Of a stretch of 64,000 nucleotides of DNA, positions 8,007 to 58,076 are shown piece after piece. Below the pieces are notes generated by a model, which saw nothing but the letters and a program-made list of their open reading frames with translations, searched no databases and had not been told where the DNA came from. Origin of the DNA: Candidatus Multivoradales bacterium (GTDB lineage Bacteria > Acidobacteriota > Thermoanaerobaculia > Multivoradales > J023); the NCBI GenBank assembly GCA_965248925.1, contig CBDFLE010000006.1:2304001-2368000 (forward strand), written 5' to 3'. The position numbers and the translations under genes are program-made. Every line of letters starts with the position of its first letter. Within the stretch, counting starts at the first letter, position 1.

Positions 8007-10859
<2,853 letters not shown>

Positions 10860-22203: not shown

Positions 22204-22279
22204 GGGCCGAAATTTGCGTGTTTTCCCTAGCAGGAGACCGATCATCAGCACCTCCCACAGCGCAAGAAAAGACCCCGTA

Positions 22280-27640: not shown

Positions 27641-29392
27641 TCAGGACAGACGCTCGACCTCGGATGCACTGCGAAAGCAGTCCATCACCCGCGGATCCAG
27701 ACGCCACGGGTAGCTCTCCTCACAGCTCTCACACTCCGCCCAGCGACGGCGGAAGTCCTCGCCGTCGAATTGCAGGCGCTGAATACGGAATCCCTCGACG
27801 AATTGTCGGTTCTCCACCGCCTGGGGCTCTTCGAGCACCACCGCAGCGACGTGCGCCGCCACCCACAAGGCCATCTCTTCGAGGTTCTCCAGCTGCTGAG
27901 CGAGAATGCGCTTGGCCTGATCGATCTCGACCCCGACCTCATAGAAGGTCTTCTCGGCCAGACTCAAGGTCTGGATCTCGGTGAAGTCGAAGAACACCGG
28001 CTCTTTGAGCGGTTGCCGGTGCTGCCGCTTCCACTGGTAGTAGTCGCTCAGATAACCCTGCAAGCCGCGGTTGATCGGCCCCAGACGACTGAACAAACGC
28101 ATGAAAGCGAGCAAGAATCGGCGTTCGGTGAAGAAATCGTTGATGAAGGGAAAAACGTAGTAAGCGAAGTAAATCGCCAATTCCCAGGTGTATTTGAGCG
28201 AAAACACCTCTTGATCGCCGAGGGCATCGTAGCTGAGTTCGTAGGATGGCACATAGGCGGAATAGACCACCCGCATGGCTTGCTCATAGAGTTCGCACTT
28301 GCTGGCCAATTGGGCCGGGTCGTCGGTCTTGATGGCGTCGACGATCAGCGTGTTGTAGATGGCTATCAGGTCCGAACCGGGGCTGTAGAGCGGGTCGGTA
28401 AAGCGCCCTGACTCACCAGCCAATGCCCAACGCTGGGCACTGAGGGTCTGCTGGCAATCGTAGGAGTAGCTCTTGAGTCCACCGAAATCGAGCACTTTAC
28501 GCTGCGGCAAGTCGCGGGCAAAGCAGGGGAAATGCTCGCACACCCAGCGGGTGGCTTTCTCGACCGTAAACACATCACGAGGATCGATCACCCGCTTATC
28601 GAACACTAACCCAAGACTCGTCTTGCCTTGCAGCGGTATGACCCAGAACCACAGACCCTCAGCGCAAAAGTGATTGGTGGCAAGCCAGAACGGTAGATGG
28701 CCAGTATGCCTTCGCTCTTTCTTTAGTCGTACTTCTCTGCGTGAGGCATCGGTTAAATGATCGATATCGACCAAGCCTTCGACCCACCAAAAGAAAGATC
28801 CGTGATCGATCGAATTCTTCTTCGCTAGCCCCATGCGGCGTTCCAAGTGCTTGCTGCGCCCGGTGGTGTCCACTACCCAATGAGTGCTGACTTGGCGGCT
28901 TTCCCCTTGGCGGCCCAGCTGATAACGCACCTGGTGCTCAGCACCACCCTCCGCCAACTCAACATCGAGCTTCAACGCTTCGAGTTCGATGGTAAAGCGT
29001 GGGTCTTGGCGATTGCGACGCAGAACCTCGGCCTCGAAGGTGTTGCGGTCGAGCTGATAGCTGGCGACGTTCGAGAACGGCCGGATGTAGGAGTGGCTAT
29101 AGTCCTCGAAGCGACTGTTGTCGCGACCGGTGCTGGGCCAGTAGAAGCGCAGGTTGTACTTCATCAGTTGGTCGCGCAACATGTGCTCTTCCAGATCAAG
29201 CACTTTGGAGAAGTAGTAGCCGGCAACCTGCACCGACGACTCGCCTACCTTTTGGTGTGGCGATGGCAGGCTGGCGCGCTTCTCCAGCAGCAGAATGGTC
29301 TTCTTCGTATCTAGCAACAGGTGGCGAGCCAGGGTCAGCCCAGCCAAGCCTCCACCCAGGATAACCACGTCGTAGCGGCGAGTCCTAGTCAT
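27641..29392 (-). CDS. Flavin-dependent halogenase-like oxidoreductase
   Basis: GGGLAG, KVGES, KYNLRF (candidate catalytic Lys), YQLDR..FE, WFWVIP (WxWxIP), GE...F.DPLYSPG. Confidence 0.8.
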   Translation of the reverse strand: MTRTRRYDVVILGGGLAGLTLARHLLLDTKKTILLLEKRASLPSPHQKVGESSVQVAGYYFSKVLDLEEHMLRDQLMKYNLRFYWPSTGRDNSRFEDYSHSYIRPFSNVASYQLDRNTFEAEVLRRNRQDPRFTIELEALKLDVELAEGGAEHQVRYQLGRQGESRQVSTHWVVDTTGRSKHLERRMGLAKKNSIDHGSFFWWVEGLVDIDHLTDASRREVRLKKERRHTGHLPFWLATNHFCAEGLWFWVIPLQGKTSLGLVFDKRVIDPRDVFTVEKATRWVCEHFPCFARDLPQRKVLDFGGLKSYSYDCQQTLSAQRWALAGESGRFTDPLYSPGSDLIAIYNTLIVDAIKTDDPAQLASKCELYEQAMRVVYSAYVPSYELSYDALGDQEVFSLKYTWELAIYFAYYVFPFINDFFTERRFLLAFMRLFSRLGPINRGLQGYLSDYYQWKRQHRQPLKEPVFFDFTEIQTLSLAEKTFYEVGVEIDQAKRILAQQLENLEEMALWVAAHVAAVVLEEPQAVENRQFVEGFRIQRLQFDGEDFRRRWAECESCEESYPWRLDPRVMDCFRSASEVERLS

Positions 29393-29485
29393 AATCTCGA
29401 TCTCCTGACGGGTCGGCCGACCCGGTTCGCTTAACCCCGCGCACCAAATGAGAAAACGGCAAGAAAAACAACAACCATGCCTCGC

Positions 29486-30793
29486 TCAAGCCGAGGGTGA
29501 TTTCTTCACTGGCGGCGCGGCGACACCGCTGGTCACCCATGCCGGCAGCTGATCCGCGGCGACTCGCCAGTCGGCAACCTGGCGCCAGGTGGGCAAGGCG
29601 CTGACGACGACGTTGTAATGCTGAGTAAAGTGCCGCAACAAGAAGCTACGCTCGAGCTGCTCTTTCGAGATCCCCAACTCGCTGCTGGCACGCCCGCCGC
29701 TGAGCAAGTTGGCGAATTGGATATAACTCGACAGTGGATCGACACTTCCCGGCCGCGGCATCGCCGCCGGCAGCAGACCCCGCACCGAATCCAGTAGGCC
29801 GCCGCCGAAGGGGAGGTAATCAGCCATTCTCTCGCCCCAACTCATCGGATCCAACGACACATTGAGCACCTTCTCCGGTCGATCAGCAACAAAAGCCATA
29901 CGCACCCGCACCTCACCATCGAGGCCGACATGGAAACAGATCGACTGGCAAGCCGCCTTGAAACTCCCCGGCCCATAGGCCAACAAACCCTTTTCTGGAT
30001 CGGGCAGAAAGGCCCAGCCAATGCCATAGCGGCCGAGTTCGGTCTCGGAAGCACGGTCGCGACGGACGATGAAGTCGTCGCTCACCACCAGGTAGCTTGA
30101 CTCCGGCAGCGGCACCACCAGATGCGGCGCATCCTCACCCAGGGGTGCCAGGCGGAGCTGAAAATCGAAGATGTCTACTTTGAGAATGATCCACTCATAA
30201 GTCGACTCGACGGCGGTCAGGTCGACCGCAAAGCGCTCGCCAGCGGCAAAACGCCCGATCTTGCCATCCTCGCGCCGTTTGTAGAGCAACTGCTCAAAAC
30301 CAAATCCACCGCGCCGATCGGTTTCTTCCTTGCACCAAGCCAGCGGCCGTAGCACGCTAGGGGGATCGCAGGGTTCAGTGGCGGGGAAAGCCTCGGCGCG
30401 GCAAAAATCACTGACTCTGACGAAGTAGCGCAGCGCAAACTCCCGCACCTGCCCCTTGAGCCAACGGGCAGCCTGTCCAAGGTTGCCGCCATGGGGTTTC
30501 GGGCGATCGAAAAACATTTCCCGTACATTGCCCATCACCGCCAACTGGCGGCCGGCCACCGGTGCCTTGCCGGTGAAACCGAAGCTAGTATCTGCCGGCC
30601 AAGAACGTGCCGAGAGTTCGAAGCGACCGTCATAGGCATTGTCGCGCTGCAGCTCACGCCGCCATTTCTCGAGCTCGACACCGGCCGCGAGTCCGCTCTC
30701 GACCGCGGCCAGCAAGTGGCGTTCGAGTTCGCTCCAAAGCAGCCGTTGGGGCTCGGTCGGCGTCGAGCGGTCAAATTCTTTAGTCGCATCCAT
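29486..30793 (-). CDS. Hypothetical protein of the PKS-like operon
   Basis: 435-aa co-oriented ORF with host-like composition; no family recognised. Confidence 0.75.
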   Translation of the reverse strand: MDATKEFDRSTPTEPQRLLWSELERHLLAAVESGLAAGVELEKWRRELQRDNAYDGRFELSARSWPADTSFGFTGKAPVAGRQLAVMGNVREMFFDRPKPHGGNLGQAARWLKGQVREFALRYFVRVSDFCRAEAFPATEPCDPPSVLRPLAWCKEETDRRGGFGFEQLLYKRREDGKIGRFAAGERFAVDLTAVESTYEWIILKVDIFDFQLRLAPLGEDAPHLVVPLPESSYLVVSDDFIVRRDRASETELGRYGIGWAFLPDPEKGLLAYGPGSFKAACQSICFHVGLDGEVRVRMAFVADRPEKVLNVSLDPMSWGERMADYLPFGGGLLDSVRGLLPAAMPRPGSVDPLSSYIQFANLLSGGRASSELGISKEQLERSFLLRHFTQHYNVVVSALPTWRQVADWRVAADQLPAWVTSGVAAPPVKKSPSA

Positions 30794-30814
30794 CAGCGTT
30801 GGTTCCCCAGGGTT

Positions 30815-31426
30815 CTACTCTTCCTGCCGACGACGATAAAGGGTCTTCAGACCTTCACCCGCGCGCTCGATCTGACCCGCTTCAATGCACCGAGTAAGCG
30901 CCGCCCGCAGCGCCGCCCGACCTTTGCCGGTACTCTTCACTAGCTGACTCAAGGTCGCACTGCCACCCAGAGAGACCAACGCCGCGTCCAGAGAATGGGC
31001 CTTGGCAGCGGCAGGGGTGGCGGCGCTAGCTTTGGTTCTCTTCTTGCGGCTCCGCGGCTGCTTGGGTTGAGCGGCCTCAGGTTGCTGCGCCGGCAACTCT
31101 GGCCGAGACCAGCCGCAAATCTCGCGCAAATGCAACCGCAGGTGGCGCGGCAAACACTCAGAGCTGGCTTGCTGACCAGCCAGGTAGCTATCGATCAACC
31201 GCTCGCTGATCTGCTCCGCTGAACGCTGGCCCGACTCCATCACTTCGCCTCTTTCGAGGATCTCCGGCGCTTGCTGGCGTACTGAAACCAAGGTGTAGCG
31301 AAACAGGCACACCGGCTTCATCGATCGCCCTCCAGATCGCCGCCGCTGCGCGCCGAGCCAGTCGATCAGCCGGCCAACGACTCCGTCAAATCCTCGACCC
31401 CATTCGCCTAGTGGATTCTCGTTCAT
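30815..31426 (-). CDS. Hypothetical protein, paralog of 32636-33100, with C-terminal winged-helix-like domain
   Basis: ATGA coupling; V.L..Y..VS.....E.LE core; basic linker; GGSATLSQLVKSTG...LRAAL......GQIER.G....T.Y. Confidence 0.72.
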   Translation of the reverse strand: MNENPLGEWGRGFDGVVGRLIDWLGAQRRRSGGRSMKPVCLFRYTLVSVRQQAPEILERGEVMESGQRSAEQISERLIDSYLAGQQASSECLPRHLRLHLREICGWSRPELPAQQPEAAQPKQPRSRKKRTKASAATPAAAKAHSLDAALVSLGGSATLSQLVKSTGKGRAALRAALTRCIEAGQIERAGEGLKTLYRRRQEE

Positions 31427-32607
31427 AAATTCTCCCCGAAATCACCGCCAGTGCCTTCGAGATCAAACAGCACGCCCGGACCAAGACTGGAAAGCTCAGC
31501 GAGCCGAGCCAATTTCGACGCCACCGGCTCCAGCACCCACTGACGCCAGCGGCGGGCCGGCGGGCCGGCGGCCGGCTGATATGCAAGAAAACTCTCCAAC
31601 AACGCTTCTCGACCCACCACATAGGCCCACAGCGACAACGCCGAGGCAATCCCACACCGCGTCGCCTTTTGCAGGTCGGGTGGGAGCTGCAAGAGCTGTG
31701 CGTCAAGCTGATCTAGCAGCTCGGCCAGCACCGCCGGCGCGGTGAGGTTGACCAACGTAGTCGCCCAGAACAAACCCGACAAGGCGTTCGCTCGCGCCAC
31801 CTCTGCGGGCGCCTTCGCGGTGCCGGCCAAGGCGCTGCCGGTCAGCCGCAAAGCCTCGTCAAAAGCCGCTTTGCCGGACCCCGGTAGCAAGCGGCGGGGG
31901 CTGAAATAGAGCCCGCGGCCGAGCCCATGCCAGAAAGTCCCTCGCCGGGCCGGCAGTTCGGCGGCCAGGGTCGCGTCCAGGCGAGTGATAGCGGCGGGCG
32001 CCAAGCCGATAACGATCAACCCCAGGGCCTCGAACACAGCTCGGCTATAACCCGGCCGCGAGCTAGTTCGGCAGACCTGCACCAAATCGCGCAAGGCCAT
32101 CGCGCCGGCTGGCGACCGAAGATCGTCCAAGCGCCGCCGTGCCAGCGCCAACCCCATGCCGGTGTGCAAGGGCAGCAGCTCACCGGCAGTGGCTATCTCG
32201 TTGTCGACCTGGCGCAGCCCGACACCGGCCATGCCGAGCTGAAAACCCAAGCCCTCCAAGACCCAAAGAGCGCGCCACGGGGGCAAGCGCCGGCTCGCCG
32301 CCACCTGCCGCGCCAATCCCGAAGTCCCGGCGATGGCCTGCTCGGCAAAACGGAAATCCTCGAAAGCCAGCAGCTTGTTACCGAGTTCGCTCAGATCGAC
32401 GGCCGCCCGGCCACCGACCCATGGACCGGCGGCCAGCACCGAACCCCGCAGACCGACCAGAGCCGAGCGCAGCATTCCCCGTGGCAGATCCCCTAGCGCC
32501 AGCGGACGGTCGCCACGCAGCGCCGCCAGCATCGAGCTGGTCTGTTCGAGCCCGAGTTTCGACATCGACGCCGAAAATTTAGCCACCGCGGTGAAAAGCT
32601 GCTGCAT
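31423..32607 (-). CDS. DUF1702/UnbL-like helical protein (copy 2)
   Basis: ALW..EGLG, LHTGMGLALA, FEALG, FWHGLGRGLYF.P, TLVNL; paralog of 34747-36045. Start ATG 32607 inferred from the shared N-terminal motif. Family call is tentative. Confidence 0.65.
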   Translation of the reverse strand: MQQLFTAVAKFSASMSKLGLEQTSSMLAALRGDRPLALGDLPRGMLRSALVGLRGSVLAAGPWVGGRAAVDLSELGNKLLAFEDFRFAEQAIAGTSGLARQVAASRRLPPWRALWVLEGLGFQLGMAGVGLRQVDNEIATAGELLPLHTGMGLALARRRLDDLRSPAGAMALRDLVQVCRTSSRPGYSRAVFEALGLIVIGLAPAAITRLDATLAAELPARRGTFWHGLGRGLYFSPRRLLPGSGKAAFDEALRLTGSALAGTAKAPAEVARANALSGLFWATTLVNLTAPAVLAELLDQLDAQLLQLPPDLQKATRCGIASALSLWAYVVGREALLESFLAYQPAAGPPARRWRQWVLEPVASKLARLAELSSLGPGVLFDLEGTGGDFGENL

Positions 32608-32635
32608 CAGTTCTTTGCTCGCAAGGTCCAGAATC

Positions 32636-33100
32636 TCAGTCTTGCTCCGCTGACCAGCGATCGAGAACTTGAAAGCAAACCCGCAGGAACTCTCGGTCCG
32701 CCGGCTCGATCTGCTGTTTGCCACCGCGCTGCAAGTAGTCGGCGATACGCCACGCGGCGAAGGCTTCGCGGCTCATGCTGCGGGCCACTAGAAGTTGCTC
32801 GCTCTCCAGCACCCGCTCGCGGCCGCTGTGGATCGACACCACCGCATACTCCACCAGCTTGACCATTGAATCGGCGAGATCTTGGGCTGCGCTGACTCCG
32901 GAACTGCCAGTGCCAACCGGGATCAGGCCACCCGCCAGCCGGCCCGAGACGGTGTCGTAGCTCTCTCCTGCCAGGCCGTGGAACCCACGGGCCGCTTGGG
33001 CAAACATCTCACTGCCGGCGGCGAAGGCATCCACCGGCATCAGCGCCAGCCGACCACAGCGGCTCAGTATTCGACCAAAACCCGAATTCAGCTCGCTCAT
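32636..33100 (-). CDS. Hypothetical protein
   Basis: GGAG RBS, in operon, paralogous to 30815-31426. Confidence 0.75.
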   Translation of the reverse strand: MSELNSGFGRILSRCGRLALMPVDAFAAGSEMFAQAARGFHGLAGESYDTVSGRLAGGLIPVGTGSSGVSAAQDLADSMVKLVEYAVVSIHSGRERVLESEQLLVARSMSREAFAAWRIADYLQRGGKQQIEPADREFLRVCFQVLDRWSAEQD

Positions 33101-33148
33101 CTCGTCTCCAAGGTCACCGGGCCACGGCTGCTCTTGGCCCGGCAGAGT

Positions 33149-34750
33149 TCAATCCGCTACCGCTAACACCCTGAGCAAGAAACCACCCAACAGCAGGAAG
33201 GTCACCGCCGCACCGGTCTCCACCCAACGACTCTCCAAGCCGGCCCGCAGCAGGGCCGGAGTAGCTAGCACCACGGCCAACATCATCGCCCCCAAGGCGC
33301 CGGCTACCGTCCAACGATCACGGTGGCCCTCGGCCACAAGGCCGCGTTCGAGAGGCGGCTGAAAGCCTTCAGGACTCTCACTCAGGTCCAACAGCAGATC
33401 GATTTTCTGCGGTAGATCGAGCAACAAATCCGTACCCTGTTCGAGCATCGGCGCTAGCCGCCGCGGTGAGCTGAGGGTACGAAACTGGCTCCACCCGGCC
33501 AACCATTGCAAGCTGTTGAGCGCTTCGCCCAGAGTGTCTCGCTGCGGATCTAGTCGATGAGCCAAGCTCGCCGACTCCACCAGTCCGCGAAAGAAGACCC
33601 GCAGGTCGGCCCGACCGCGGTAGCCAGCTTCGCGCGCCAACCGCCAATGCAGCATCGCATGCTCGGCCAAGCTGTCGCCACGCCGCGACCACGCCCCATC
33701 ACGAAAAGGAACTGCTTGCCGCAGGCGCAAGCGCAGCTCGGCGGCGGTGCTCGTGCGGCGAGTCGCCACCATCTCGCGCAGCAAGTAGTTGGCGGCCCGC
33801 TCCGGCTGGTGCGCGGCGGCGGCCCGCAGGTAATTCCACAGCCGCACTTGCGAGGTCGCCGGCAGGCTGGCGAAGGTGCCATGACGAATTCCCCAGCGAC
33901 CGTCTGCCAGCACCACCCACTCGGCAGTGACCGGGAAGGCTCGCGCCACCAAAGCTAGTTGCAACCAAACCAGGCTCAAGCGGCGCGACAACTCAGCCTG
34001 CTCGGCAGCACCAAGGTCAGCTTGCGGGTCGTCCCATCGCCGGCCGGCGAGATAAGTCGTCGACAGCACTCGGCTCGAACATAGGGCTGGCAAGACAGCG
34101 GCCACCCGCACCAGGTCGGAGCCCTCGGTGGCGCTAGCCAGAACTTCCAGATGTTCGGCCTGGCGCGCCAGGTCGATCCGCGCTTCCAGGTGACAGCGGA
34201 AATCCTCGACCAGCCGAGAGAAATCAAGCTCCGCCGGCCAACGCACTCGCTCAAGCGGTGCCAACCGCTCGCCGAGAGCGGTCAGCTCGCTGTCGGCACC
34301 GGGACGCACCACCCGCAATACGACCGCGCTACCATCGGCCAACACCCCGCGGTGAGCCTGCAACAGCCAATCGCTGGCCACCGGGTCGGAATCGAGATCG
34401 GCAAAGGCCTCGGCCGCCGCCACTCCCAGCTCATCGCCGAGGCGCTCGCGAATGCTCGCCCAGGAAGCTGGCGGGCAATCCCCGCGAACCGCGCCCAAGC
34501 GCAGGCACTCGCGAGCCGAGAAGTAGTCACCGCGCGAGCCGAGATAGGCGGCAAAGGCCGCCAAGGGCCCACCAAACTCAGCCAACACCGTGGCCAATCC
34601 AGCGACCAAATCTTCTCTCGACAGCCCCTCGCTCGATCGCCGGAGCAGGCGCCGCGGACCGCGCGCCAAGCCCAGCTCGAGCAGCCGCCGCTGCAACTCC
34701 GAGACCCGCAGACGGCGGTGGTCTGAGAACCTGGCCCCGGCCCTGCTCAT
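33149..34750 (-). CDS. AarF/UbiB/ABC1-family pseudokinase, 2 C-terminal TMs
   Basis: ABC1 layout (ELG....F..D..PVAS...Q.H.G.L.DG..V..RV.RP) but KxGQ, HxD..N and DFG are absent. Confidence 0.8.
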   Translation of the reverse strand: MSRAGARFSDHRRLRVSELQRRLLELGLARGPRRLLRRSSEGLSREDLVAGLATVLAEFGGPLAAFAAYLGSRGDYFSARECLRLGAVRGDCPPASWASIRERLGDELGVAAAEAFADLDSDPVASDWLLQAHRGVLADGSAVVLRVVRPGADSELTALGERLAPLERVRWPAELDFSRLVEDFRCHLEARIDLARQAEHLEVLASATEGSDLVRVAAVLPALCSSRVLSTTYLAGRRWDDPQADLGAAEQAELSRRLSLVWLQLALVARAFPVTAEWVVLADGRWGIRHGTFASLPATSQVRLWNYLRAAAAHQPERAANYLLREMVATRRTSTAAELRLRLRQAVPFRDGAWSRRGDSLAEHAMLHWRLAREAGYRGRADLRVFFRGLVESASLAHRLDPQRDTLGEALNSLQWLAGWSQFRTLSSPRRLAPMLEQGTDLLLDLPQKIDLLLDLSESPEGFQPPLERGLVAEGHRDRWTVAGALGAMMLAVVLATPALLRAGLESRWVETGAAVTFLLLGGFLLRVLAVAD

Positions 34751-36045: not shown

Positions 36046-36062
36046 AGCTCAGGATCCAGAAT

Positions 36063-36443
36063 CTAGCTGTCGGCGGCTGCAGCGACTGTTTCGCTCGCCG
36101 CCCCAACTTCGGCCTTGTTGCTCAGCGTACTCCAAGAACGATCCACGGTTTCCCAGCCACGTTTCATCGCCTCCCCCAGAACTTCACCGGGCTTCGACCA
36201 CTCGCCACTAGCCAGGTCGGTGAGGGCGTTGACCATCCCCCCTTGGAACTCGTCGCCCGCCCGGTAGACATTGCGCACCGTCTCGCCCATCTGGCCCTCG
36301 GCGGCGTGGCTGAGGGCATCGAAGGCCGAAGTGGACTTACCCCAGCCTTCACCCGGCAACAGCAGTTGACTCGCCTGGCGTAGGCCGAGCATCGACATCG
36401 CCCAGGAGAAGCGGAACATAGATTTGGTCAGATCGCGCATCAT
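36063..36443 (-). CDS. Small amphipathic helical protein
   Basis: AAGGA RBS; KSM.RFSWA.S..G motif shared with neighbouring proteins. Confidence 0.8.
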   Translation of the reverse strand: MMRDLTKSMFRFSWAMSMLGLRQASQLLLPGEGWGKSTSAFDALSHAAEGQMGETVRNVYRAGDEFQGGMVNALTDLASGEWSKPGEVLGEAMKRGWETVDRSWSTLSNKAEVGAASETVAAAADS

Positions 36444-36466
36444 TTTTTCCTTTCGTTGCTAGTTGA

Positions 36467-39849: not shown

Positions 39850-39894
39850 GATCCCCCTACACTAGCGCCATTTTTCAACTCCAGCCGCACCAGT

Positions 39895-41442
39895 TCACCA
39901 GCCGGCGGCTACCGCCGCTCGCCCGGCCACTTCGTCGAGCGGCCAGGGCACTGAAGAGGTCGCACCGGCGACCTCGGCGGCGACCTGTTGGGCGGAGACG
40001 ATCACCGGTGTAATGCCACCTCCCGGCCGGGTCCAATGGCCGACCAGATAGAGATTCTTGATCGGCGATTCGATTCCCGGCCGGCGGCTGCCGAGTTGAT
40101 CGGGCGACATTTCCCAACCCAGCATGGCGCCAAACTTATTGCCGGTAAATCGCCAAGAAGTCAGGGCTGAGGCACTCACTTGGACAACGATCTTGCGCGA
40201 GATCCCCGGCACCAGATCTTCGAGGTGCGAGACCACGTAGTCTTCCACCTCGCGCTTGTGCGCCGGCCAATCGGTGATCTCTCGGTAGTCGAGCTGCTGC
40301 ACTTTTTGCAGGATCACCACCTGCCCGCCAACCGGCGCCATCCGTGGCTCGTAGACCGTCGGCACGAAAACCTTGCAGCGCAAACCCCCGTCGCCCACTT
40401 GATCAGGGTCCCAGGAATTCCAGTAGTAACCCTGCACCGCCTCCAGCACCTCGGGTTCGATATCGCGCAAGCCGATGTGGGTTAAGAAGCAAGGAAAACT
40501 CGGACGCAGGGATCGCACTTGCTTCAGGTAAGCCGGGTCCAGCACCCCGGCGGGTAGCAACCGCTCTAGGGTTTGCAGCATGTCGGCGTTGGAAATCACC
40601 GTTCGCGCCAGTACCCGCCGCTGGCCCTGCAAAGGGCCGCGCAGAGTCTTCAACTCGACACCCTGAGCGCGGCCATCTCGCACCAAGATGTGCTCGGCGC
40701 GGGTACTCATCAGAATGTGGCCACCGCGAGCCTCGAAACAGCGCGCCAGCTCGTCGGCGAAAGCCTGCGATCCCAGTACCGGATAGTAGTTGCCGAGAAA
40801 GTAGGACAACCGCAACATCGAGTCGAAGACAAACGAAGTCCGGGCCGGCGGCGAACCCCAATGCGGACAATCAGCGGTCAACAGCAGCTTCAACTTCCGG
40901 TCGGTGAAATGCCGATCGAGCACCTGGCGCACAGAAAGATCTCGGTAACGCTCCAGACGCGGCGTCTCACGACCCCTGAAATAGGCCAGCAAGCCGAGTA
41001 AGTAGGCCTCGCGAACCTCGCTGAAAAATTTATCGAGGTTGGCCTGCTCGGCGGGGAATGCCTGCTTGACCATGGCCAGGTAGGTGTCGAAATCCCCCGG
41101 TACCTCGAACTTGCTGCCATCGGGAAAGTGAAAAGTATCGACCGGGTCCATTTTCACCCAGCCGGTCTCCACCCCGAGCTCGCCGAGCAACTTGCCAGTC
41201 AAGGTGAGGGGATTGCCCAGCAGCGGATAGAAGTGGGTAGCGGCATCAAAGGTGTAGCCCTTGCGCCGGAAGGTGCTGCAATAGCCACCCACCATGTAGT
41301 GCTGCTCGACCAGCAGCACTTTCAGACCTTCGCGGGCCAGCAAGTTGGCGGTGACCAAGCCGCCGACCCCGGCACCGATGATCACCGTGTCGTAGGCCGG
41401 CTCCGGGGCCTCGCGGCGCAGCCCTCTGAACAAGCGTTTCAC
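39895..41442 (-). CDS. Phytoene-desaturase / retinol-saturase family FAD oxidoreductase
   Basis: IGAGVGGL...VEQH..VGG....F.RKGY.FD; C-terminal LYLVG.WT.PGGG. Confidence 0.9.
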   Translation of the reverse strand: MKRLFRGLRREAPEPAYDTVIIGAGVGGLVTANLLAREGLKVLLVEQHYMVGGYCSTFRRKGYTFDAATHFYPLLGNPLTLTGKLLGELGVETGWVKMDPVDTFHFPDGSKFEVPGDFDTYLAMVKQAFPAEQANLDKFFSEVREAYLLGLLAYFRGRETPRLERYRDLSVRQVLDRHFTDRKLKLLLTADCPHWGSPPARTSFVFDSMLRLSYFLGNYYPVLGSQAFADELARCFEARGGHILMSTRAEHILVRDGRAQGVELKTLRGPLQGQRRVLARTVISNADMLQTLERLLPAGVLDPAYLKQVRSLRPSFPCFLTHIGLRDIEPEVLEAVQGYYWNSWDPDQVGDGGLRCKVFVPTVYEPRMAPVGGQVVILQKVQQLDYREITDWPAHKREVEDYVVSHLEDLVPGISRKIVVQVSASALTSWRFTGNKFGAMLGWEMSPDQLGSRRPGIESPIKNLYLVGHWTRPGGGITPVIVSAQQVAAEVAGATSSVPWPLDEVAGRAAVAAGW

Positions 41443-42704
41443 CGCTCTTCCTCGGCCTCCGGCTCGATCTCGGGCTCGGGGGGATTGCGACCATAGGTTT
41501 CGTGCGCGACCACGAACTCGCCGCTGCCGATGGCGCCGCCCATCGACAACTCACCTGCCAGAATCGTCGCAGCGAAAATCTCAGCCAACCGCAGGGCATC
41601 CCCCGTCCCCTCGCAGCCGAGCATCGCCAGGCACTCGCGGCTGGTCCCGAGGCCGGTGCCGCCGCCGACCGTGGCCACCGACAGAGAGGGCAAGGTCACG
41701 CTGGCGTACAACCCGCCGTCGGCAGTGAGTTCGAAATTGGTAATGCCGACCGCCGAGTTGGCGACATTGGCGACGTCTTGACCGCAAGCGATGTAGAGCG
41801 CGGTCAAACCGTTGGCGTAATGGCCGTTGTAGCCTAGAGCACCCGCCTGTAGATGGCCAAGAACGGTGTGATGCCACATATGCACCAGTTGCTCGGGCAA
41901 GAGGTGCAGGACCGATTTCACCACCTGTCGCGGCAACCGCGCTCCGGCCACCACTTTCTTGCCCTTACCCCCCGCCAGTACCGCGCCGCTGGCGCGCTTC
42001 TCCGAGTTGTAGCCGCTAAAAACGTAGTACCGCTCGCTACCGAGGTTGCTGGCAATCCACTGGCAGATCGCTTCCACTGCCTTGACGATCATATTCATGC
42101 CCTGGGCGTCGGCGGTATGAAAACGGCAGTTGACGATCACCTCCCGCCCCACCGGCAGACACTCCAGCGCTAACAAACGACCGTGGGAGGTCGTCGCTTC
42201 GGCCACCTGTCGCAAGTCGTCAAAAGCAGCCTCAACCCGAGCCGCGAAATCGTACGCTTCGGCCACGCCGGCGAGAAAGAAGACTGGTGCGACCCGGTTC
42301 TCGTCCAACCACACCCGGGTTACCGCACCGCCGGCCCGGGTCAGGGCAACCATTCCTCGCTCATAAGAGCGCACCAAGGCCCCTTCGGTGGTTGCCAGCG
42401 GGACGTAGAACTCCCCCTTTGCGTGCTCGCCCCTTAGCCGCAAAGGGCCAGCGACGCCGAGGGGCATCTGGACCGCGCCGATGGGGTTCTCGATATTGCC
42501 GCGAAACTCCTCGCTGGGCAGGCTCGAGCGACCGACATGCGACAGTTGGGTGTCGGTGCGCTGCTCCACCCAAGCCCGGCGGCGAGCCACCAGATCAGCG
42601 CTGTAGCCTTGGTCCTTATAACGTGGTACCAAGCGGATACGCTGCCGCTCAGGCTCTACCAGAACCGGGCGCGCGGGTGCCTCTGTAGGCGAGCTTCTGG
42701 ACAT
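41439..42704 (-). CDS. Class I HMG-CoA reductase homologue
   Basis: NIEN.IG, VPLATTEGAL, DAQGMNM, GQD.A, VGGGT, AGELS and C-terminal catalytic H (AHETYGR). ATG 42704 is coupled to the upstream stop. Confidence 0.92.
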   Translation of the reverse strand: MSRSSPTEAPARPVLVEPERQRIRLVPRYKDQGYSADLVARRRAWVEQRTDTQLSHVGRSSLPSEEFRGNIENPIGAVQMPLGVAGPLRLRGEHAKGEFYVPLATTEGALVRSYERGMVALTRAGGAVTRVWLDENRVAPVFFLAGVAEAYDFAARVEAAFDDLRQVAEATTSHGRLLALECLPVGREVIVNCRFHTADAQGMNMIVKAVEAICQWIASNLGSERYYVFSGYNSEKRASGAVLAGGKGKKVVAGARLPRQVVKSVLHLLPEQLVHMWHHTVLGHLQAGALGYNGHYANGLTALYIACGQDVANVANSAVGITNFELTADGGLYASVTLPSLSVATVGGGTGLGTSRECLAMLGCEGTGDALRLAEIFAATILAGELSMGGAIGSGEFVVAHETYGRNPPEPEIEPEAEEER

Positions 42705-42705
42705 C

Positions 42706-44019
42706 TCAAGAACCCCCGGTAGTAGGTTCCCCGGCCGCCACACGGGCCAAGCCCGCACCACGTTCGAGCACCAAGGCGGCGATGTTGCCATCGAGTCCGA
42801 CAGTATCGACCAAGCCCAATCGCAAGTCGGCCACGGGCGCCGGCGAGGTCAGTGGCGCCAGACACCAGCGAGACAGCTCCTCCTCGAGGCCAGCGATACT
42901 CGGCACCAAACCATCCAGCATGGCGCCCAACAGGGCCACCACTTGCAATGCGCCGGCGGCGCCGAAGGTTTCGCCGAGAATCGACTTGCTGGCCATCACC
43001 GGCAGTTTGCCGGCGTGTTCGCCAAACGCCGCCACCAGTCCCGCGGCCTCGTTCAGGTCGCCCCGCGGACTGCCGTTGGCCGAGGCACTGACTAGGTCAA
43101 TCTGCGCCGGCTCGAGCCCGGCATCGGCCAAGGCAGTGGTGATGGCATAGCATAAAGCGGCGCTGGCGGACTCTGGCTGCTGACCACGGGAGAGGTCATA
43201 ACAACTGGCATGGCCGCGAATCTCAGCCAAGATGGTGGCCCCGCGGCGTTCGGCGAGGGAGGCTTCCTCGAGCATCAGCAGGGCGGCGCCTTCACCAGCG
43301 GCGAAACCGTTGCGACGGCCATCGAAGGGCACGGCACAAGCCGGTTGGCCATTCGTCGCGGCAGCCAACATGCCCGCTTGGTCGAAGCCGCAGAAAGACT
43401 CGAAACACAATTCTTCGGCACCACCGGCGAGCAGCATCTCGGCGCGACCGGAGCGAATCAGGTCGGCACCCTGGGCGATCGCCTGCAAACCCGCCGTGGT
43501 GCCGCCGGTGAAAGTCGAGTTGACCCCGCGCAGACCGTGCCAGATCGCTGCCTGGCCCGCCGCCGCGTTGATCACCGTATTGGCGAACACCAGCGGTTTG
43601 GCATAGTTCGGCCCGGCGGTCTGTGCCCGCACATCGAATTCAGAGATGGTGTGCACACTGCCAAACATCGTCCCCAGCACCAATCCAAGTTCATGCTCGG
43701 CCCGCGCCTCAACGCTCCAACCGCTGGCGGCGAGAGCCAGCTGGGCAGCCACTACGGTCAGTCGCCCGGTACGGTCCAGCGGTCGCAGATTGACCTTGCC
43801 GAGATACTCCAGCGGCGCGAAATCGCGAATCTCGGCACCGAGCGCGGTCGACAAGGACGAGGTATCGAACATCTCCACCGCCGCCAAACCGCTGCACCCC
43901 TGGCGTTGAGCCGCCCACAAGGCCACCGGTGAGTCGCCCACCGCCGACAGCATCCCCACCCCGGTGACCACCACCCGCCGCTCACCTCCTGCCTCCGCTA
44001 GGCCGTTCGCCCTACTCAT
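42706..44019 (-). CDS. Non-catalytic ketosynthase / chain-length factor
   Basis: KS fold; triad replaced: AAC to GGT, SAHG to SASA, GHT to GET. Confidence 0.88.
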   Translation of the reverse strand: MSRANGLAEAGGERRVVVTGVGMLSAVGDSPVALWAAQRQGCSGLAAVEMFDTSSLSTALGAEIRDFAPLEYLGKVNLRPLDRTGRLTVVAAQLALAASGWSVEARAEHELGLVLGTMFGSVHTISEFDVRAQTAGPNYAKPLVFANTVINAAAGQAAIWHGLRGVNSTFTGGTTAGLQAIAQGADLIRSGRAEMLLAGGAEELCFESFCGFDQAGMLAAATNGQPACAVPFDGRRNGFAAGEGAALLMLEEASLAERRGATILAEIRGHASCYDLSRGQQPESASAALCYAITTALADAGLEPAQIDLVSASANGSPRGDLNEAAGLVAAFGEHAGKLPVMASKSILGETFGAAGALQVVALLGAMLDGLVPSIAGLEEELSRWCLAPLTSPAPVADLRLGLVDTVGLDGNIAALVLERGAGLARVAAGEPTTGGS

Positions 44020-45233
44020 CCGGCATACCGCCGGAAAAGCACCGAGGCATTGTTGCCACCAAAGGCATAGGCGTTGTTCATCGCCACCTCGACCGCTAGT
44101 TGGCGCGCCTCGTTGGGTACGCAGTCGAGTTCACACTGCGGATCAGGCTCGGAAAAATTCATGGTGGGCGGGATCTCGCTCTGGTCGATCGCCAAACAGC
44201 AGATAGCGCTCTCGATAGCCGAGGCAGCGCCCATGGTGTGGCCGATCATCGATTTCACCGAACTGATCGGCAGCCGCGCGAGGCCATCACCAAAGACTCG
44301 CTGCACCGCCAAAGTTTCGAGGCGGTCGTTGGTCGGTGTGCCAGTACCGTGGGCGCTGACGTAGCTGACCGCCGCCGGCTCGATACCACTAGTCGCCAAA
44401 GCCTGCTCCATGGCGCGGGCGGCACCATCGCCCTCGGGATGGGCAGCGGTCATGTGATGGGCGTCGCAGGAGAGGCCAAAGCCAGCCATCTCAGCGTAGA
44501 TCCGCGCCCCCCGACGCCGCGCGCGGTCGAGAGTCTCGAGCACCAACACCGCCGCCCCCTCGCCCGGGATCATCCCCTTGCGATGGAGGTCAAACGGCTG
44601 GCAGATCTCCGGTGCGATCGCCCCGAGGCGGGCAAAACCGGTGTAGGTGATGCGCGAGAAAGAGTCGGCTCCGCCGGCCAACATGACCTCGGCGCGACCG
44701 GCGCGCAGCGCATCGAAAGCATAGGCCATGGCGTAGTTGCCGGCCGCGCAGGCGGCGGGGATCATCGCATTGATGCCGCCGAAGCCGACTTCGACCGCGA
44801 CCTGGCCGGCGATCACATGACAGGGATAAGCGTGGGCAAACCGAGGGCCGAGCTGATCGAGGCTGTCGGCCATCATGCGATCGTCGAAATGCTCGACCTC
44901 GCGCGGCTCACCCGAAGTAGTGCCCATCACCACACCTGCTCGATGAGGATCCGCGGGGCGCTCCAGGCCGGCATCTTCGACCGCCTCGTGGGCAGCGCAG
45001 ATCGCCAGTTGGGAAGCGCGGCCAACCTGTGTCGGATCCAGTAGTCGCAGGGCCAGCGCAGGGTCAAAACCCTGAATCTCGGCACCCAGCTTGGCCCGAT
45101 GCTTGCTTGTGTCGAACGAGGTCACGGCACTGAAGCCACTGCAGCCAGCGAGCAGCTGGCGCCAGCTCTGATCGCGGTCGGTGCCCACGGGCGTAACCGC
45201 ACCGATGCCGGTGACGACGACCCGTGGCAACAT
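44016..45233 (-). CDS. Type II beta-ketoacyl-ACP synthase (FabF-like KS-alpha)
   Basis: AACAAG, SAHGTGT..ND, KSMIGHTMGA, FGGNN; intact Cys-His-His. Confidence 0.95.
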   Translation of the reverse strand: MLPRVVVTGIGAVTPVGTDRDQSWRQLLAGCSGFSAVTSFDTSKHRAKLGAEIQGFDPALALRLLDPTQVGRASQLAICAAHEAVEDAGLERPADPHRAGVVMGTTSGEPREVEHFDDRMMADSLDQLGPRFAHAYPCHVIAGQVAVEVGFGGINAMIPAACAAGNYAMAYAFDALRAGRAEVMLAGGADSFSRITYTGFARLGAIAPEICQPFDLHRKGMIPGEGAAVLVLETLDRARRRGARIYAEMAGFGLSCDAHHMTAAHPEGDGAARAMEQALATSGIEPAAVSYVSAHGTGTPTNDRLETLAVQRVFGDGLARLPISSVKSMIGHTMGAASAIESAICCLAIDQSEIPPTMNFSEPDPQCELDCVPNEARQLAVEVAMNNAYAFGGNNASVLFRRYAG

Positions 45234-45234
45234 C

Positions 45235-45513
45235 TCAGGCTACTTCCTCGGCGGCGCCCACGTCGAGATGCTCCAGCACCAGGTCGACCGAATCCTGCAC
45301 CGTGCGCAACTCCTGTAAGCGCTCTTCCGGCACCCCGAGCTTGAACTCGAAATCGACGTCGACCCCGATCTCCATCAAGGACAGAGAATCCAATTCCAAA
45401 TCATCGATAAAAGAAGCATTGTCGGCGATCTCCGCCGGCTCGATGCTAGTGACATTGGAGATGATCTCCTTGATCTTGGCCCGAATCTCCGGGATCTTAT
45501 CTGTGACAGCCAT
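45235..45513 (-). CDS. Acyl carrier protein
   Basis: Acidic 92 aa; DLELDSL phosphopantetheine site. Confidence 0.95.
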   Translation of the reverse strand: MAVTDKIPEIRAKIKEIISNVTSIEPAEIADNASFIDDLELDSLSLMEIGVDVDFEFKLGVPEERLQELRTVQDSVDLVLEHLDVGAAEEVA

Positions 45514-45683
45514 TCCCTACTTCCTCCAGCTTGCGGTGGCGCTGCTCAGTCAGCACGCGACGGTAGGAGGACGGCCGGCAAGGCCGCCTCCCGATCTCTT
45601 CCCCTGATCTCGAGAATCATCGACTCACTCCAGCGCCACGGACGGTCAGAAACTCCGCAGACAACCAAAGTAACTCAGCACAG

Positions 45684-45740
45684 ATGCTATAGCCGGCTCG
45701 GTAGAGCAGCAATGGCTCTGGTGGTGCAAAAAAGATCTAG
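45684..45740 (-). promoter_or_regulatory. Putative sigma70-type promoter of the ACP-KS operon with upstream activator box
   Basis: Minus strand: TTGCTG(45712-45707)-N17-TAGCAT(45689-45684), preceded by AGATCTTTTTT. Confidence 0.6.
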
Positions 45741-45746
45741 TGCCTC

Positions 45747-46484
45747 CTACCTTGCCGCCGGCCAACCCGGTAGGGACTGCTCCATCAGACCGAGTGCCAG
45801 AGCGCGCCGAATCGCTCCGCGGCGCTGCCCGACACCGAGCTTGTCGAGGATCTTGTGAACATGATTCTTCACCGTTGGCAGGCTGATCGCCAGCCGTTGA
45901 GCGATTTCCTTGTTGCGCAAACCTCCGCCGATTAGCCTTAGCACCTGATCCTCCCTTGGCGTCAGCCGCACCACCACCTGCTCACGGGATTTCACCGGCA
46001 ACTGCTCAGCCAGCTCAGAGATGCGACTGAGCACGCTAGCCGCCAGTCGCGGCGTACACGGTGGCCGGTTGGCGAGCACATCGGCAATCGCCTGGCGCAA
46101 CTCAGCCAATCCAGCGGCGGCAGGCAAATGCCCACTGGCCCCCTCTTCAATCAGCGCCAGCCCCTCGCGCTCGCCGTCGACGCCCAACACCAGCACTTTG
46201 GCGCGAGGATACTGCCGCCGAGCCCAGCGGGTCGCGACGCGGGTCTGGCCCGCGCCGCCGAGGGCATCGATCAGCACCACCTTCGGCACGTTATTCGGCA
46301 CATTGTTCGGCACAGAATTCGCCGCCGAGCCCGGCTCCGCAACACATCCATCAGCGTCCGGTGCAGCTATTGTCCGCAAGCAGGCGGTGGCGCCAAACGT
46401 GGCCACCAAAGCCTGCGCCACCAAGGGTGAGGGGTGGACGAGCCACACCTCCGGGCGGTGGCCATTGGCGGCCACGTCCCTCAC
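45747..46484 (-). CDS. LuxR-family regulator with atypical receiver
   Basis: LTPRE...NKEIAQRL.IS..TVKNHVH.IL.KL; GTGA coupling at 46481-46484; acidic DD pocket missing. Confidence 0.88.
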   Translation of the reverse strand: MRDVAANGHRPEVWLVHPSPLVAQALVATFGATACLRTIAAPDADGCVAEPGSAANSVPNNVPNNVPKVVLIDALGGAGQTRVATRWARRQYPRAKVLVLGVDGEREGLALIEEGASGHLPAAAGLAELRQAIADVLANRPPCTPRLAASVLSRISELAEQLPVKSREQVVVRLTPREDQVLRLIGGGLRNKEIAQRLAISLPTVKNHVHKILDKLGVGQRRGAIRRALALGLMEQSLPGWPAAR

Positions 46485-47170
46485 CCGGCCTCCCGCACCA
46501 AGCGATGGCGACGATCCCTGATCCAACCATGACGATAGGCATGGCGCACCGCCGCGCCGCGATCGCCAACCTCGAGCTTCTCGAAAATGTGATGCACATG
46601 GTTCTTGACCGTGTAGACCGAGAGGTTGAGCTGCTCGGCGATCTGCCGGTTGCTCGAATCATCGGCGATCAGCTGCAAGATCTCGATCTCGCGCGGGGTC
46701 AGCTTGAAGACCTCGGCGCGGTCGTGCTCTCGGCGTTGTCGCGCCACGTCGGCCAAGCGGGTGAACAGTGAATCGGCGATATCGGTCGAACAAAGCACCT
46801 CGCCTTGCAGCACCCGGTCGAGGGTGTCCACCAGCTTCCCCCAGTGGTTTTCCTTACCCACGAAAGCGTCTACGCCGGCCTCGACACAACGCAGAATCGC
46901 CCGTTGATGCAGCGGTAAACCAAGGACCACGACCTTCGGTGCCGGCTCCATTTGGCGCGTCTCGCGAACCAGACAGCCGAGGCGCTCCTTGGCTCTGTTG
47001 ATATCGATCAGCAACAAGTCCGGCGGCTCGGCGCGCACCGCGGCCAGCGCAGATTCCGGCCGCTCGGCAACCGCCACCGAGAAGCGAGGGCCCGAAGAAA
47101 GATGAGCTGCCAACGCCTCCCGCGCCACCCCATGACAGCTGTAGAGCAGAATCCGCGACCGTCGGCTCAT
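46481..47170 (-). CDS. LuxR-family regulator with atypical receiver
   Basis: LTPRE.EIL...SNRQIAEQL.LS..TVKNHVH; beta1 ends YSCH instead of DD. Start uncertain (47170-47224). Confidence 0.9.
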   Translation of the reverse strand: MSRRSRILLYSCHGVAREALAAHLSSGPRFSVAVAERPESALAAVRAEPPDLLLIDINRAKERLGCLVRETRQMEPAPKVVVLGLPLHQRAILRCVEAGVDAFVGKENHWGKLVDTLDRVLQGEVLCSTDIADSLFTRLADVARQRREHDRAEVFKLTPREIEILQLIADDSSNRQIAEQLNLSVYTVKNHVHHIFEKLEVGDRGAAVRHAYRHGWIRDRRHRLVREAG

Positions 47171-47453
47171 CCGCCGTTCTCCCGTCAAACAAGACATCCA
47201 CCCGCCCGGTTCCGCAGCCATCAAGCGGCTCGGGCGGCAGCAAATGTCCCTGCTGCTGAATCTGAATAGCTAAAGCGATCGAGCTGAGATTAGCATATTG
47301 CCGAGCCGGCAAACCAAGCCGCCGAATGGTTTGCACCGACCGGCGCAGGATGACTGAAATTGACCAGCCGCAGAGGTTTCTACCCTCGGCAGCCGACGGC
47401 CAAGAGACTCTGAGCTAGGAACGTCGGCCGTTCTTGTGGTGAGGGCGCAGAGA

Positions 47454-49724: not shown

Positions 49725-49743
49725 GGGGGCTTGGCTAACCAGT

Positions 49744-52604: not shown

Positions 52605-52633
52605 AGTGTTCGGATCCTGAGTCTTGTAGCCGT

Positions 52634-58051: not shown

Positions 58052-58076
58052 GAGCTACCAACGAAGGAGGGGGGAG

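Follow-up and report, generated by a model that had tools for sequence, protein, structure and literature searches.

An acidobacterial ketosynthase operon with a paralogous HMG-CoA reductase and its apparent kinship to the candidate ladderane genes of anammox bacteria

The locus described here raises the question of why a paralogue of 3-hydroxy-3-methylglutaryl-CoA (HMG-CoA) reductase (HMGR) should stand in the middle of an operon that includes an acyl carrier protein (ACP), a ketosynthase (KS) and a chain length factor (CLF). It lies in a 64,000-nucleotide stretch (the window, in which all positions are counted unless a contig is named) of the genome of Candidatus Multivoradales bacterium, a member of the Acidobacteriota (assembly GCA_965248925.1, contig CBDFLE010000006.1, positions 2,304,001 to 2,368,000). 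The listing of open reading frames (ORFs) and the Pfam and NCBIfam scans of their translations show an unbroken run of 17 ORFs on the minus strand from position 47224 down to 27641, in which two LuxR-type regulators come first and 15 ORFs extend from the ACP through a flavin-dependent halogenase (Table 1). The reductase is followed by a flavoenzyme of the CrtI/phytoene dehydrogenase family (PDH), an acyltransferase of the PlsC type and two UbiB/ABC1 proteins (ABC1a and ABC1b), the latter interspersed with small ORFs and with larger orphan proteins. Overlaps of 4 nt occur at the KS/CLF, HMGR/PDH, acyltransferase/ABC1a, orphan A/ABC1b and orphan B/small ORF junctions, and the gaps at the remaining junctions do not exceed 93 nt. 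An earlier reading of the same DNA, hereafter the original prediction, had named genes that are all present on this strand, had counted 13 of them as co-oriented where there are 15 and two regulators, and had held that a cyclase, FabG, FabZ, FabD and any mevalonate gene are missing. None of these was found among the 17 ORFs in either scan, and no cyclase or aromatase domain appears in the Pfam scans of the operon or its flanking ORFs. Given the conserved order of the genes in other genomes, the arrangement is far beyond chance. The cassette appears to be a conserved lipid-type gene set that probably makes an undescribed lipid.

The residues of the reductase itself suggest that it has left the mevalonate pathway. 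By fold and family the protein is a class I HMGR, with 283 bits to archaeal 6hr7 and 182 bits to human 1dq8. Its longest ORF overlaps the CLF gene by 86 nt, and the ATG at 42704, right behind the CLF stop codon, is the likely true start, which gives a protein of 421 aa compared with a median of 408 aa among homologues. The 120 best homologues were aligned, and human residue numbers were mapped by HMMER alignment to 1dq8 and 6hr7. E559, K691, N755, D767, H866 and S684 are each invariant in all 120 sequences and H752 is retained in 115. D690 is replaced by glutamate in 120 and K692 by arginine in 118. The other two positions mapped are R590, which is valine or isoleucine in 120 of 120, and K735, which is histidine in 87, glutamine in 12, arginine in seven, aspartate in four, glutamate in three, another residue in seven and lysine in none. 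K735 is described as forming a salt bridge to the terminal HMG carboxylate, and R590 as making a polar contact (PMC9500038). The cluster HMGR is therefore read as a neofunctionalised paralogue in which the catalytic residues are intact and two residues that contact HMG, one of them the carboxylate-binding lysine, are lost.

The genomic context of the paralogue points in the same direction. The 8.0-Mb genome contains two genes of the PF00368 family, and the copy outside the cluster, which is 41% identical to the cluster copy, retains both R590 and K735. It sits outside the window (C6:808000-826000, locus L083) in an operon with type 2 isopentenyl diphosphate isomerase, mevalonate kinase, diphosphomevalonate decarboxylase and isopentenyl-phosphate kinase, and scores 440 bits against the NADPH-HMGR model TIGR00533 as opposed to 321 bits for the cluster copy. 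An HMG-CoA-synthase-like gene is found elsewhere in the genome, which gave no match to Dxr. Among 40 other genomes that carry the cassette, Dxr is found in 34 and mevalonate diphosphate decarboxylase in four, absences in these metagenome-assembled genomes (MAGs) being counted as not found. The four decarboxylase-positive carriers all belong to the six that are Dxr-negative, a pattern that matches the host genome. The separate mevalonate operon, together with the Dxr-positive and decarboxylase-negative carriers, indicates that the paralogue is independent of mevalonate metabolism; it looks like an active reductase into which HMG no longer fits, and most genomes that encode it have Dxr and no detected lower mevalonate pathway. 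CoA and holo-ACP share the pantetheine arm, and the paralogue is inferred to reduce an acyl thioester made by the KS-CLF pair on the ACP, yielding an aldehyde or an alcohol. The reductive release or lipid transfer suggested in the original prediction is thus plausible, in that the catalytic residues of the HMGR are kept, two residues that contact HMG are lost and a PlsC-type acyltransferase follows.

The original prediction called the cluster unusual. It is no singleton, and the cassette family is present in well over 100 species-level genomes. A scan for HMGR homologues with one genome per species gave 263 relatives, of which the best 80 loci were retained for all locus counts, and a second scan seeded with a Bryobacterales copy gave 156 relatives, of which 80 were listed. 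The 17 window proteins were compared with the best 80 loci by tblastn, at least 3.8 kb of upstream sequence being required for the KS/CLF test. The proposed co-localisation holds across these loci. KS and CLF lie directly upstream of the HMGR homologue and co-oriented with it in 56 of the 66 loci with enough sequence, and on its downstream side are PDH (70 of 75 testable loci), the acyltransferase (51 of 60) and ABC1a (28 of 60). A co-oriented ACP homologue is found in 54 of the 80 loci, and LuxR-type ORFs precede the ACP in 14-16. Homologues of orphan A (17/80), the 435-aa orphan (10/80) and the halogenase (7/80 orthologues) are less frequent. The halogenase is accessory to the cassette, and halogenation is not the defining trait for which it had been taken.

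Further members of the cassette were sought by clustering all ORFs of the 80 loci and scanning exemplars with Pfam. The most frequent is an FG-GAP/UnbV_ASPIC family, present in 50 of the 80 loci and in the window; in most cases PDH and the acyltransferase are separated by one or two of its genes. A FabG-like ketoreductase stands between HMGR and PDH in 18 loci, and the families annotated in the 80 loci include no dehydratase. Other companions are TetR (13 loci), an RPE65-type oxygenase (seven), a cNMP-patatin protein (five) and DinB (five). In two of the seven loci with the RPE65/carotenoid oxygenase, L024 and L033, the CrtI-family gene is missing, which hints at an alternative double-bond chemistry; L024 also carries a halogenase. 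No KS or CLF was detected in the available sequence of seven loci (L003, L006, L041, L044, L064, L067 and L074), each of which extends 3.8 kb or more upstream, and PDH is present in six of these, five of which also have the acyltransferase. Loci of this kind fit a role of HMGR, PDH and acyltransferase downstream of acyl-ACP supply, and in them the three enzymes may work on housekeeping acyl-ACPs as well.

The carriers are mostly labelled as Acidobacteriota (Thermoanaerobaculia, Blastocatellia/Pyrinomonadaceae, Vicinamibacterales, Bryobacterales and Terriglobia), with a minority labelled as Latescibacterota, Poribacteria, Nitrospinota, Zixibacteria and Clostridia, for which binning errors are possible. 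A survey of the phylum with the CLF as query was dropped in favour of the HMGR query, since housekeeping FabF proteins score as well as divergent CLF orthologues.

The KS-CLF pair itself is of a non-aromatic character, as had been predicted. In an alignment with the host's own FabF, the KS retains the Cys-His-His triad. The CLF shows Thr, Ser and Glu in place of these residues, so that it is a catalytically dead subunit of the CLF type without the Gln of aromatic systems. A search of the Protein Data Bank (PDB) with the KS returned 9s5h_B at 454 bits, the best FabF at 311 bits, the ishigamide KS 6kxd at 309 bits and the actinorhodin KS at 227 bits; the best match of the CLF is 9s5h_C (230 bits), and the related entry 9s5i also contains an ACP. 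A search with a degenerate motif taken from 11 consecutive residues of 9s5h_B found it only in three Candidatus Brocadia genomes, and the Brocadia KS gene scores 454 bits against the window KS (49% identity), the same as 9s5h_B. On the basis of this motif, the two entries are presumably the Brocadia proteins amxFabF2 and amxFabF-mut. A preprint (10.64898/2026.05.19.726425, bioRxiv May 2026) presents the anammox amxFabF2/amxFabF-mut heterodimer in crystal structures with and without an ACP.

These anammox proteins belong to Cluster I, a set of candidate ladderane-lipid genes that consists of amxACP, amxFabZ, amxFabF2, amxFabF-mut, a phytoene dehydrogenase homologue and a B12 radical-SAM enzyme. 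The Brocadia locus (L094) reads ACP, FabZ, KS, CLF, PDH and radical-SAM, and the same order is given for Kuenenia Cluster I, KustE3603-3608 (PMC4790861, Table 2). According to the preprint, the anammox pair decarboxylates malonyl-ACP and yields acetoacetyl-ACP, and prefers C6-C8 probes over C16, a preference that is tuned by the dead subunit, in which the Cys is replaced by Val or Thr. Its CLF is presented as the first in a fatty acid pathway and Cluster I is termed 'unique to ladderane-producing bacteria', while what Cluster I does has itself yet to be proven (10.64898/2026.05.19.726425). Similar KS/PDH/radical-SAM clusters were noted in some deltaproteobacteria, in passages that mention neither Acidobacteria nor HMGR (Rattray et al. 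2009; PMC2649909).

The window shares with Cluster I a dedicated ACP, an active FabF-like KS, an adjacent CLF-like FabF with a dead triad and then a CrtI-family flavoenzyme, all in the same order, and in both systems the position of the Cys in the dead subunit is taken by Thr or Val (Thr in the window; 10.64898/2026.05.19.726425). Each of the window KS and PDH forms a reciprocal best-hit pair with its Brocadia counterpart, whereas the CLF is by BLAST no closer to amxFabF-mut than to FabF. The PDH is 34-36% identical to the Brocadia Cluster I PDH (293-295 bits) as against 91 bits to a true CrtI, 4dgk. Unlike in Cluster I, an HMGR paralogue lies between the KS pair and PDH in the window; no match to it was found in the three Brocadia genomes. 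The window lacks FabZ and the radical-SAM enzyme and adds, besides the HMGR paralogue, the PlsC-type acyltransferase, the UbiB proteins, the orphans, the FG-GAP protein and the halogenase. No dehydratase domain is encoded by the 17 ORFs, the sole own-genome match to Brocadia FabZ being on contig C5, and no cobalamin radical-SAM is found in the operon, the best own-genome matches to the Brocadia enzyme (at most 92 bits) likewise being on contig C5.

Phylogeny agrees with this kinship. In a maximum likelihood tree (LG+G4, 84 rows; support given as ultrafast bootstrap/SH-aLRT) built from every third of the sorted KS-family ORFs of L001-L080 and all Brocadia, FabF and own-genome rows, the cluster KSs form a group of 28 rows (98/93), which is joined by Brocadia amxFabF2 (31 rows, 98/95) and then by a second Brocadia KS (34 rows, 98/96). 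The CLF-type proteins of both systems, 32 rows, are split from all KS and FabF proteins with 100/100, a split that is open to long-branch effects since several rows have a deviant composition or long branches. The second Brocadia KS lies beside a dead KS (G203:C14:53483-57013, with equivalents in G201 and G202; L114-L116). This dead KS groups with amxFabF-mut, and its partner branches off just outside the clade of amxFabF2 and the cluster KSs. A further, very divergent pair of a KS (branch length 1.45) and a CLF-like protein is encoded outside the window in the host genome at G000:C5:258916-261278. The evidence supports a common descent of the ACP/KS-CLF/PDH module with the anammox cassette, and the operon is the closest known relative of the genes suspected to underlie ladderane lipid synthesis. 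The original prediction had set the locus apart from aromatic, aryl-polyene and ladderane systems alike; the non-aromatic part stands, and the separation from ladderane genes does not, as KS, CLF and the CrtI-like enzyme are closest to Cluster I.

A scheme can be proposed, with roughly even confidence, in which a dedicated chain is built, modified by the flavoenzyme, released by reduction and esterified to form a lipid, halogenation being an addition in particular lineages. The KS-CLF heterodimer would use its own ACP to build a chain whose length is defined, and FabD, FabG, FabZ and FabI would be borrowed from housekeeping fatty acid synthesis; some lineages have a FabG-like ketoreductase of their own beside HMGR. 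The PDH flavoenzyme would alter the saturation of the chain and, in the host genome, the halogenase would act on it while it is bound to the carrier. The HMGR paralogue would then use NAD(P)H to convert the thioester into the aldehyde or alcohol and free the chain from the pantetheine arm. A membrane-associated lipid would result once the acyltransferase has esterified the released product or loaded a further acyl chain. At the membrane, this lipid may be handled by the UbiB proteins and the helical proteins that accompany them, and expression could be controlled by the LuxR regulators together with the neighbouring GAF histidine kinase and NarL regulator. The product expected from this scheme would be an unsaturated and, in this host, halogenated lipid derived from a fatty alcohol or diol.

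A more specific proposal is offered tentatively, as possible rather than likely. It holds that the HMGR paralogue is a four-electron reductase of acyl-carrier thioesters, which would turn the (3-hydroxy)acyl chains of the KS-CLF pair into fatty alcohols or 1,3-diols that seed an undescribed lipid class, halogenated in some lineages, and that the ACP-KS-CLF-PDH core would be the ancestor of the anammox ladderane cassette, in which the reductase was swapped for a dehydratase and a B12 radical-SAM enzyme. If true, this would be new enzymology for a textbook family and a new kind of reductive chain release in a carrier-protein pathway. An unrecognised lipid pathway in the carriers would interest geochemists as well as biochemists. 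These carriers are abundant uncultured lineages of soil, sediment and sponges, the lipids of which serve as environmental proxies. The presence of a sister cassette in many Acidobacteriota-type genomes and in a few MAGs labelled as other phyla stands against the description of the set as unique to ladderane producers, and gives comparative leverage on the shared KS-CLF-PDH core outside the genetically intractable anammox bacteria.

The alternative that survives best, which we consider unlikely, is a type II polyketide synthase (PKS) of the aryl-polyene-like or highly reducing kind. It would make a conjugated polyene acyl chain whose double bonds are tailored by the CrtI-family enzyme (and sometimes by RPE65) and which is transferred by the PlsC-type enzyme to a lipid anchor as a protective pigment, leaving the HMGR paralogue with a side role. 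Like the ishigamide system (Iga11/Iga12, 6kxd), the window encodes a discrete ACP and a KS/CLF pair with a non-Gln CLF, as in reducing systems, and no cyclases. The CrtI-family and RPE65 enzymes (the latter in seven loci) work on polyenes in known cases, the acyltransferase is conserved and would serve for lipid attachment as in aryl-polyene systems, and a peroxiredoxin-type gene is nearby. However, the window KS matches Iga11 (309 bits) about as well as it matches FabF (311 bits), so that the ishigamide match falls within the FabF range, and the operon has neither the dehydratase nor, in the window, the ketoreductase of highly reducing PKS and aryl-polyene systems; the polyene product envisaged in the original prediction is thus not indicated by the gene content. 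Thioesterase, glycosyltransferase, LolA/MMPL export and adenylating enzymes, which are typical of aryl-polyene clusters, were none of them found in the Pfam scans. To our knowledge, an HMGR paralogue and a CrtI-family enzyme are not part of the ishigamide and aryl-polyene systems, and here the paralogue is the most constant partner and was used to define all 80 loci, which makes a side role unlikely.

Less probable again is that the HMGR paralogue acts on 3-hydroxyacyl thioesters to make long-chain 1,3-diols, which the acyltransferase would acylate as the backbone of a glycerol-free 'diol lipid'. This would account for a cis-loop that is kept or conservatively changed (S684, D690 to E, K691, K692 to R) while K735 and R590 are lost, and it is in keeping with the operon having no dehydratase, with the FabG-like ketoreductase right behind HMGR in 18 loci and with the weak match of the acyltransferase to the DAGAT family (23 bits). 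It rests on an analogy of residues, though, and leaves the CrtI-family enzyme without a role, and we know of no such diol lipids from these phyla.

That the gene is an ordinary mevalonate-pathway HMGR that merely lies beside a fatty-acid-like operon is very improbable. The PF00368 match is strong, the catalytic residues are intact and the host, without a Dxr match, does use the mevalonate pathway; but a second, higher-scoring HMGR occupies the mevalonate operon, K735 and R590 are replaced in every one of the 120 homologues, Dxr is present in 34 of 40 carriers and mevalonate diphosphate decarboxylase is not found in 36 of the 40, and the gene order and 4-nt overlaps with the neighbours are conserved. 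Least credible of all is a pathway of the ladderane type or an aromatic type II PKS, because the nearness of KS, CLF and PDH to anammox Cluster I is not accompanied by a B12 radical-SAM enzyme or a cluster FabZ (own-genome matches to these Brocadia proteins being on another contig), and because there are no cyclases or aromatases, the CLF has Thr and not Gln and the actinorhodin KS reaches only 227 bits.

The scheme of chain building, reductive release and esterification, and the more specific proposal built on it, also have several points standing against them. Reduction of a thioester other than HMG-CoA by an HMGR paralogue is undocumented in the literature searched and is deduced from the residue changes, and the substrate may be bound to ACP or to CoA. 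Anammox PDH homologues gave no lycopene in E. coli and carry no assigned reaction (PMC4790861). Desaturation, saturation, isomerisation and oxidation are all conceivable reactions for the CrtI-family enzyme, and the lack of a dehydratase in the operon means that a polyene is not indicated. Five conserved families, namely the two orphan families, the small ORFs, the FG-GAP/ASPIC proteins and the ABC1 proteins, are left without a step. All of the related records listed in the two scans (the best 80 of 263 and 80 of 156) are MAGs. Of the sequencing runs listed as containing the stretch none is an RNA run, and the four that contain it stem from a single study. In a sample of 120 other genomes of the phylum with at least 90% completeness, the cluster-type HMGR (57-61% identity, about 500 bits) is found in just three, and 13 further genomes have only matches of the ordinary type (38-46% identity). 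Such a sparse distribution speaks against a lipid of the core membrane and is what an accessory product, be it a lipid or a metabolite, would show. The literature searched contained no paper on the cluster or on a characterised match to it, and nothing relevant on HMGR paired with KS-CLF, Acidobacteria or type II polyketides; the only related system to surface was that of the ladderane genes.

The acyltransferase that would complete the lipid is a two-part protein, for which no solved relative was found by sequence search. In its C-terminal domain the HRGFMPxD, FPEGIRG and PIVPF motifs are kept across 49 aligned sequences, and the PlsC half of the predicted 'SDR-PlsC' fusion is borne out. The N-terminal Rossmann-like half lacks GxxGxxG and YxxxK in the same 49 sequences and looks like a dead short-chain dehydrogenase/reductase (SDR), so that the SDR half of that label does not hold. 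By description, the architecture is reminiscent of ElbD and MXAN_1675, myxobacterial fusions of a reductase with an AGPAT/GNPAT-like acyltransferase that are placed in a fatty-alcohol and ether-lipid context and in which a reductase-like Rossmann domain likewise precedes the glycerolipid acyltransferase domain (PMC9131029). In contrast to these, the window protein has no adenylation or ACP domain, and its Rossmann domain is without the nucleotide-binding and catalytic motifs. Clusters of the elb type are reported in Acidobacteriota, Poribacteria and Latescibacterota (preprint 10.64898/2026.06.23.733905).

UbiB/ABC1 proteins are defined by the KxGQ, QVH, HxDxHPxN and DFG motifs. All four are present in ABC1a (KFGQ, QVH, HADLHPAN and DFG), whereas ABC1b lacks the first three and is pseudokinase-like, as the original prediction had it. 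Each of the two proteins ends in two hydrophobic helices, which fall in residues 520-540 and 554-572 of ABC1a and mark both proteins as membrane-anchored. The two orphan proteins beside them had been labelled 'UnbL-like', a label for which neither a Pfam or NCBIfam hit nor a fold match was found. Orphan A has 32 homologues, none with an informative name, and its predicted model is all-helical (pLDDT 86, pTM 0.87). Foldseek gave no PDB match for it at E<=0.001, and the ESM Atlas yielded only Acidobacteriota clusters without names. The best VIA-align result (Z 6.6) covers the N-terminal helices only and is not evidence of a new fold. The 126-aa ORF in front of orphan A shares with it the N-terminal motif KSM.RFSWA, and in other loci its family clusters with, or is fused to, the orphan A family. 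The wHTH label given to the small basic ORF behind orphan B goes back to a single sub-threshold match, to PaaX.

The 435-aa orphan belongs to a family of about 305 representative clusters, which gave no usable ESM Atlas match. It is fused to another uncharacterised domain in several loci of the Vicinamibacterales type, and Pfam scans of 13 longer relatives gave no family in 11, Laminin_G_3 in one and an alpha/beta-hydrolase in one. Outside the window, a paralogue with 40% identity is encoded at C6:400183-401409 and adjoins a region with several KS matches of the type I PKS kind (C6:381820-396789). The family is suggested to be a general accessory of PKS and fatty acid synthase (FAS) systems. 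The halogenase belongs to a class for which GxGxxG, a conserved Lys and WxWxIP are diagnostic, and all ten of its solved relatives at E<=0.001, including 8zop, 3e1t, CmlS and PltA, are flavin-dependent halogenases.

Table 1. Operon genes in order of transcription, followed by flanking genes on the plus and minus strands (window positions)
Feature	Position	Strand	Match or remark
RR-LuxR (GerE) transcription factor, opens the run	46481-47224	-	GerE 66.7 bits; Response_reg 31.7 bits
Second LuxR-family (GerE) regulator	45747-46526	-	GerE 59.1 bits
Dedicated ACP	45235-45513	-	PP-binding 41 bits; LELDSLSL serine motif
KS, FabF-like	44016-45233	-	Cys-His-His intact
CLF-like dead ketosynthase	42706-44019	-	Cys to Thr, His to Ser, His to Glu
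Class I HMGR paralogue	41439-42791 (longest ORF)	-	PF00368 354 bits
PDH, CrtI/phytoene dehydrogenase-family flavoenzyme	39895-41442	-	Amino_oxidase 76 bits; crtI_fam 159 bits (cut-off of 238 not reached)
Acyltransferase, 554 aa, PlsC/GPAT superfamily	38185-39849	-	PF01553 45 bits (residues 320-448); DAGAT 23 bits
ABC1a, UbiB/ABC1 atypical kinase	36467-38188	-	ABC1 187 bits
Small ORF, 126 aa	36063-36443	-	Resembles N-terminus of the following protein (orphan A)
Orphan A, 432 aa, all-helical	34747-36045	-	No Pfam/NCBIfam match
ABC1b, degenerate UbiB/ABC1 paralogue	33149-34750	-	ABC1 68 bits, profile positions 3-184 only
Small ORF, 154 aa	32636-33100	-	No Pfam/NCBIfam family; homologue in only 2/80 loci
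Orphan B, 433 aa, all-helical, paralogue of orphan A	31423-32724	-	34% identity to orphan A; aligns with the orphan A family
Small basic ORF, 203 aa, possible DNA-binding C-terminus	30815-31426	-	PaaX E 8e-4, sub-threshold; homologue in 0/80 loci
435-aa orphan, recurring cluster member	29486-30793	-	Homologues in 10/80 loci
Flavin-dependent halogenase, 583 aa, closes the run	27641-29392	-	GGGLAG, KVGES and WFWVIP motifs
NarL-type response regulator, convergent with the operon	26949-27611	+	Response_reg 93 bits; GerE 70 bits
GAF-GAF-HisKA_3 histidine kinase	25192-26952	+	Pfam scan
TPR/FG-GAP/UnbV_ASPIC (CRTAC1-type) protein	22804-25158	+	FG-GAP_3 141 bits; UnbV_ASPIC 47 bits
AhpC/TSA-type redoxin, directly 5' of the FG-GAP gene	22202-22798	+	AhpC-TSA 38 bits; adjacency only, association uncertain
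FadL/TodX-type outer-membrane channel for hydrophobic compounds	20579-21919	-	Toluene_X 88.5 bits; signal-peptide-like N-terminus; adjacency only, association uncertain

Among the flanking genes, the FG-GAP/ASPIC gene has moved past the halogenase to the opposite strand in the window, and the conserved set thus exceeds 27641-47224. HisKA_3 kinases are also found upstream of the cluster in nine other loci. The immediate upstream neighbours of the operon on the same strand (47454-52796, minus) encode a GlgB-type branching enzyme, a homologue of the arginyl-tRNA-protein transferase ATE and a second CBM48/alpha-amylase protein, each with homologues at no more than two of 81 loci. Three ORFs of the AhpC/TSA-redoxin type lie on the plus strand of the window (22202-22798, 57945-58664 and 58661-59395), of which one adjoins the FG-GAP/ASPIC gene and the other two stand in tandem behind an ABC-2 transporter. 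Two large minus-strand ORFs occupy the start of the window. The first (1022-7879) encodes 2285 aa with SLH, DUF11, GEVED and InlB B-repeat domains and is probably a giant cell-surface protein, and the second (8007-11545), whose direct upstream neighbour is an ECF sigma factor, encodes a Ser/Thr protein kinase of 958 aa that carries long arrays of TPRs.

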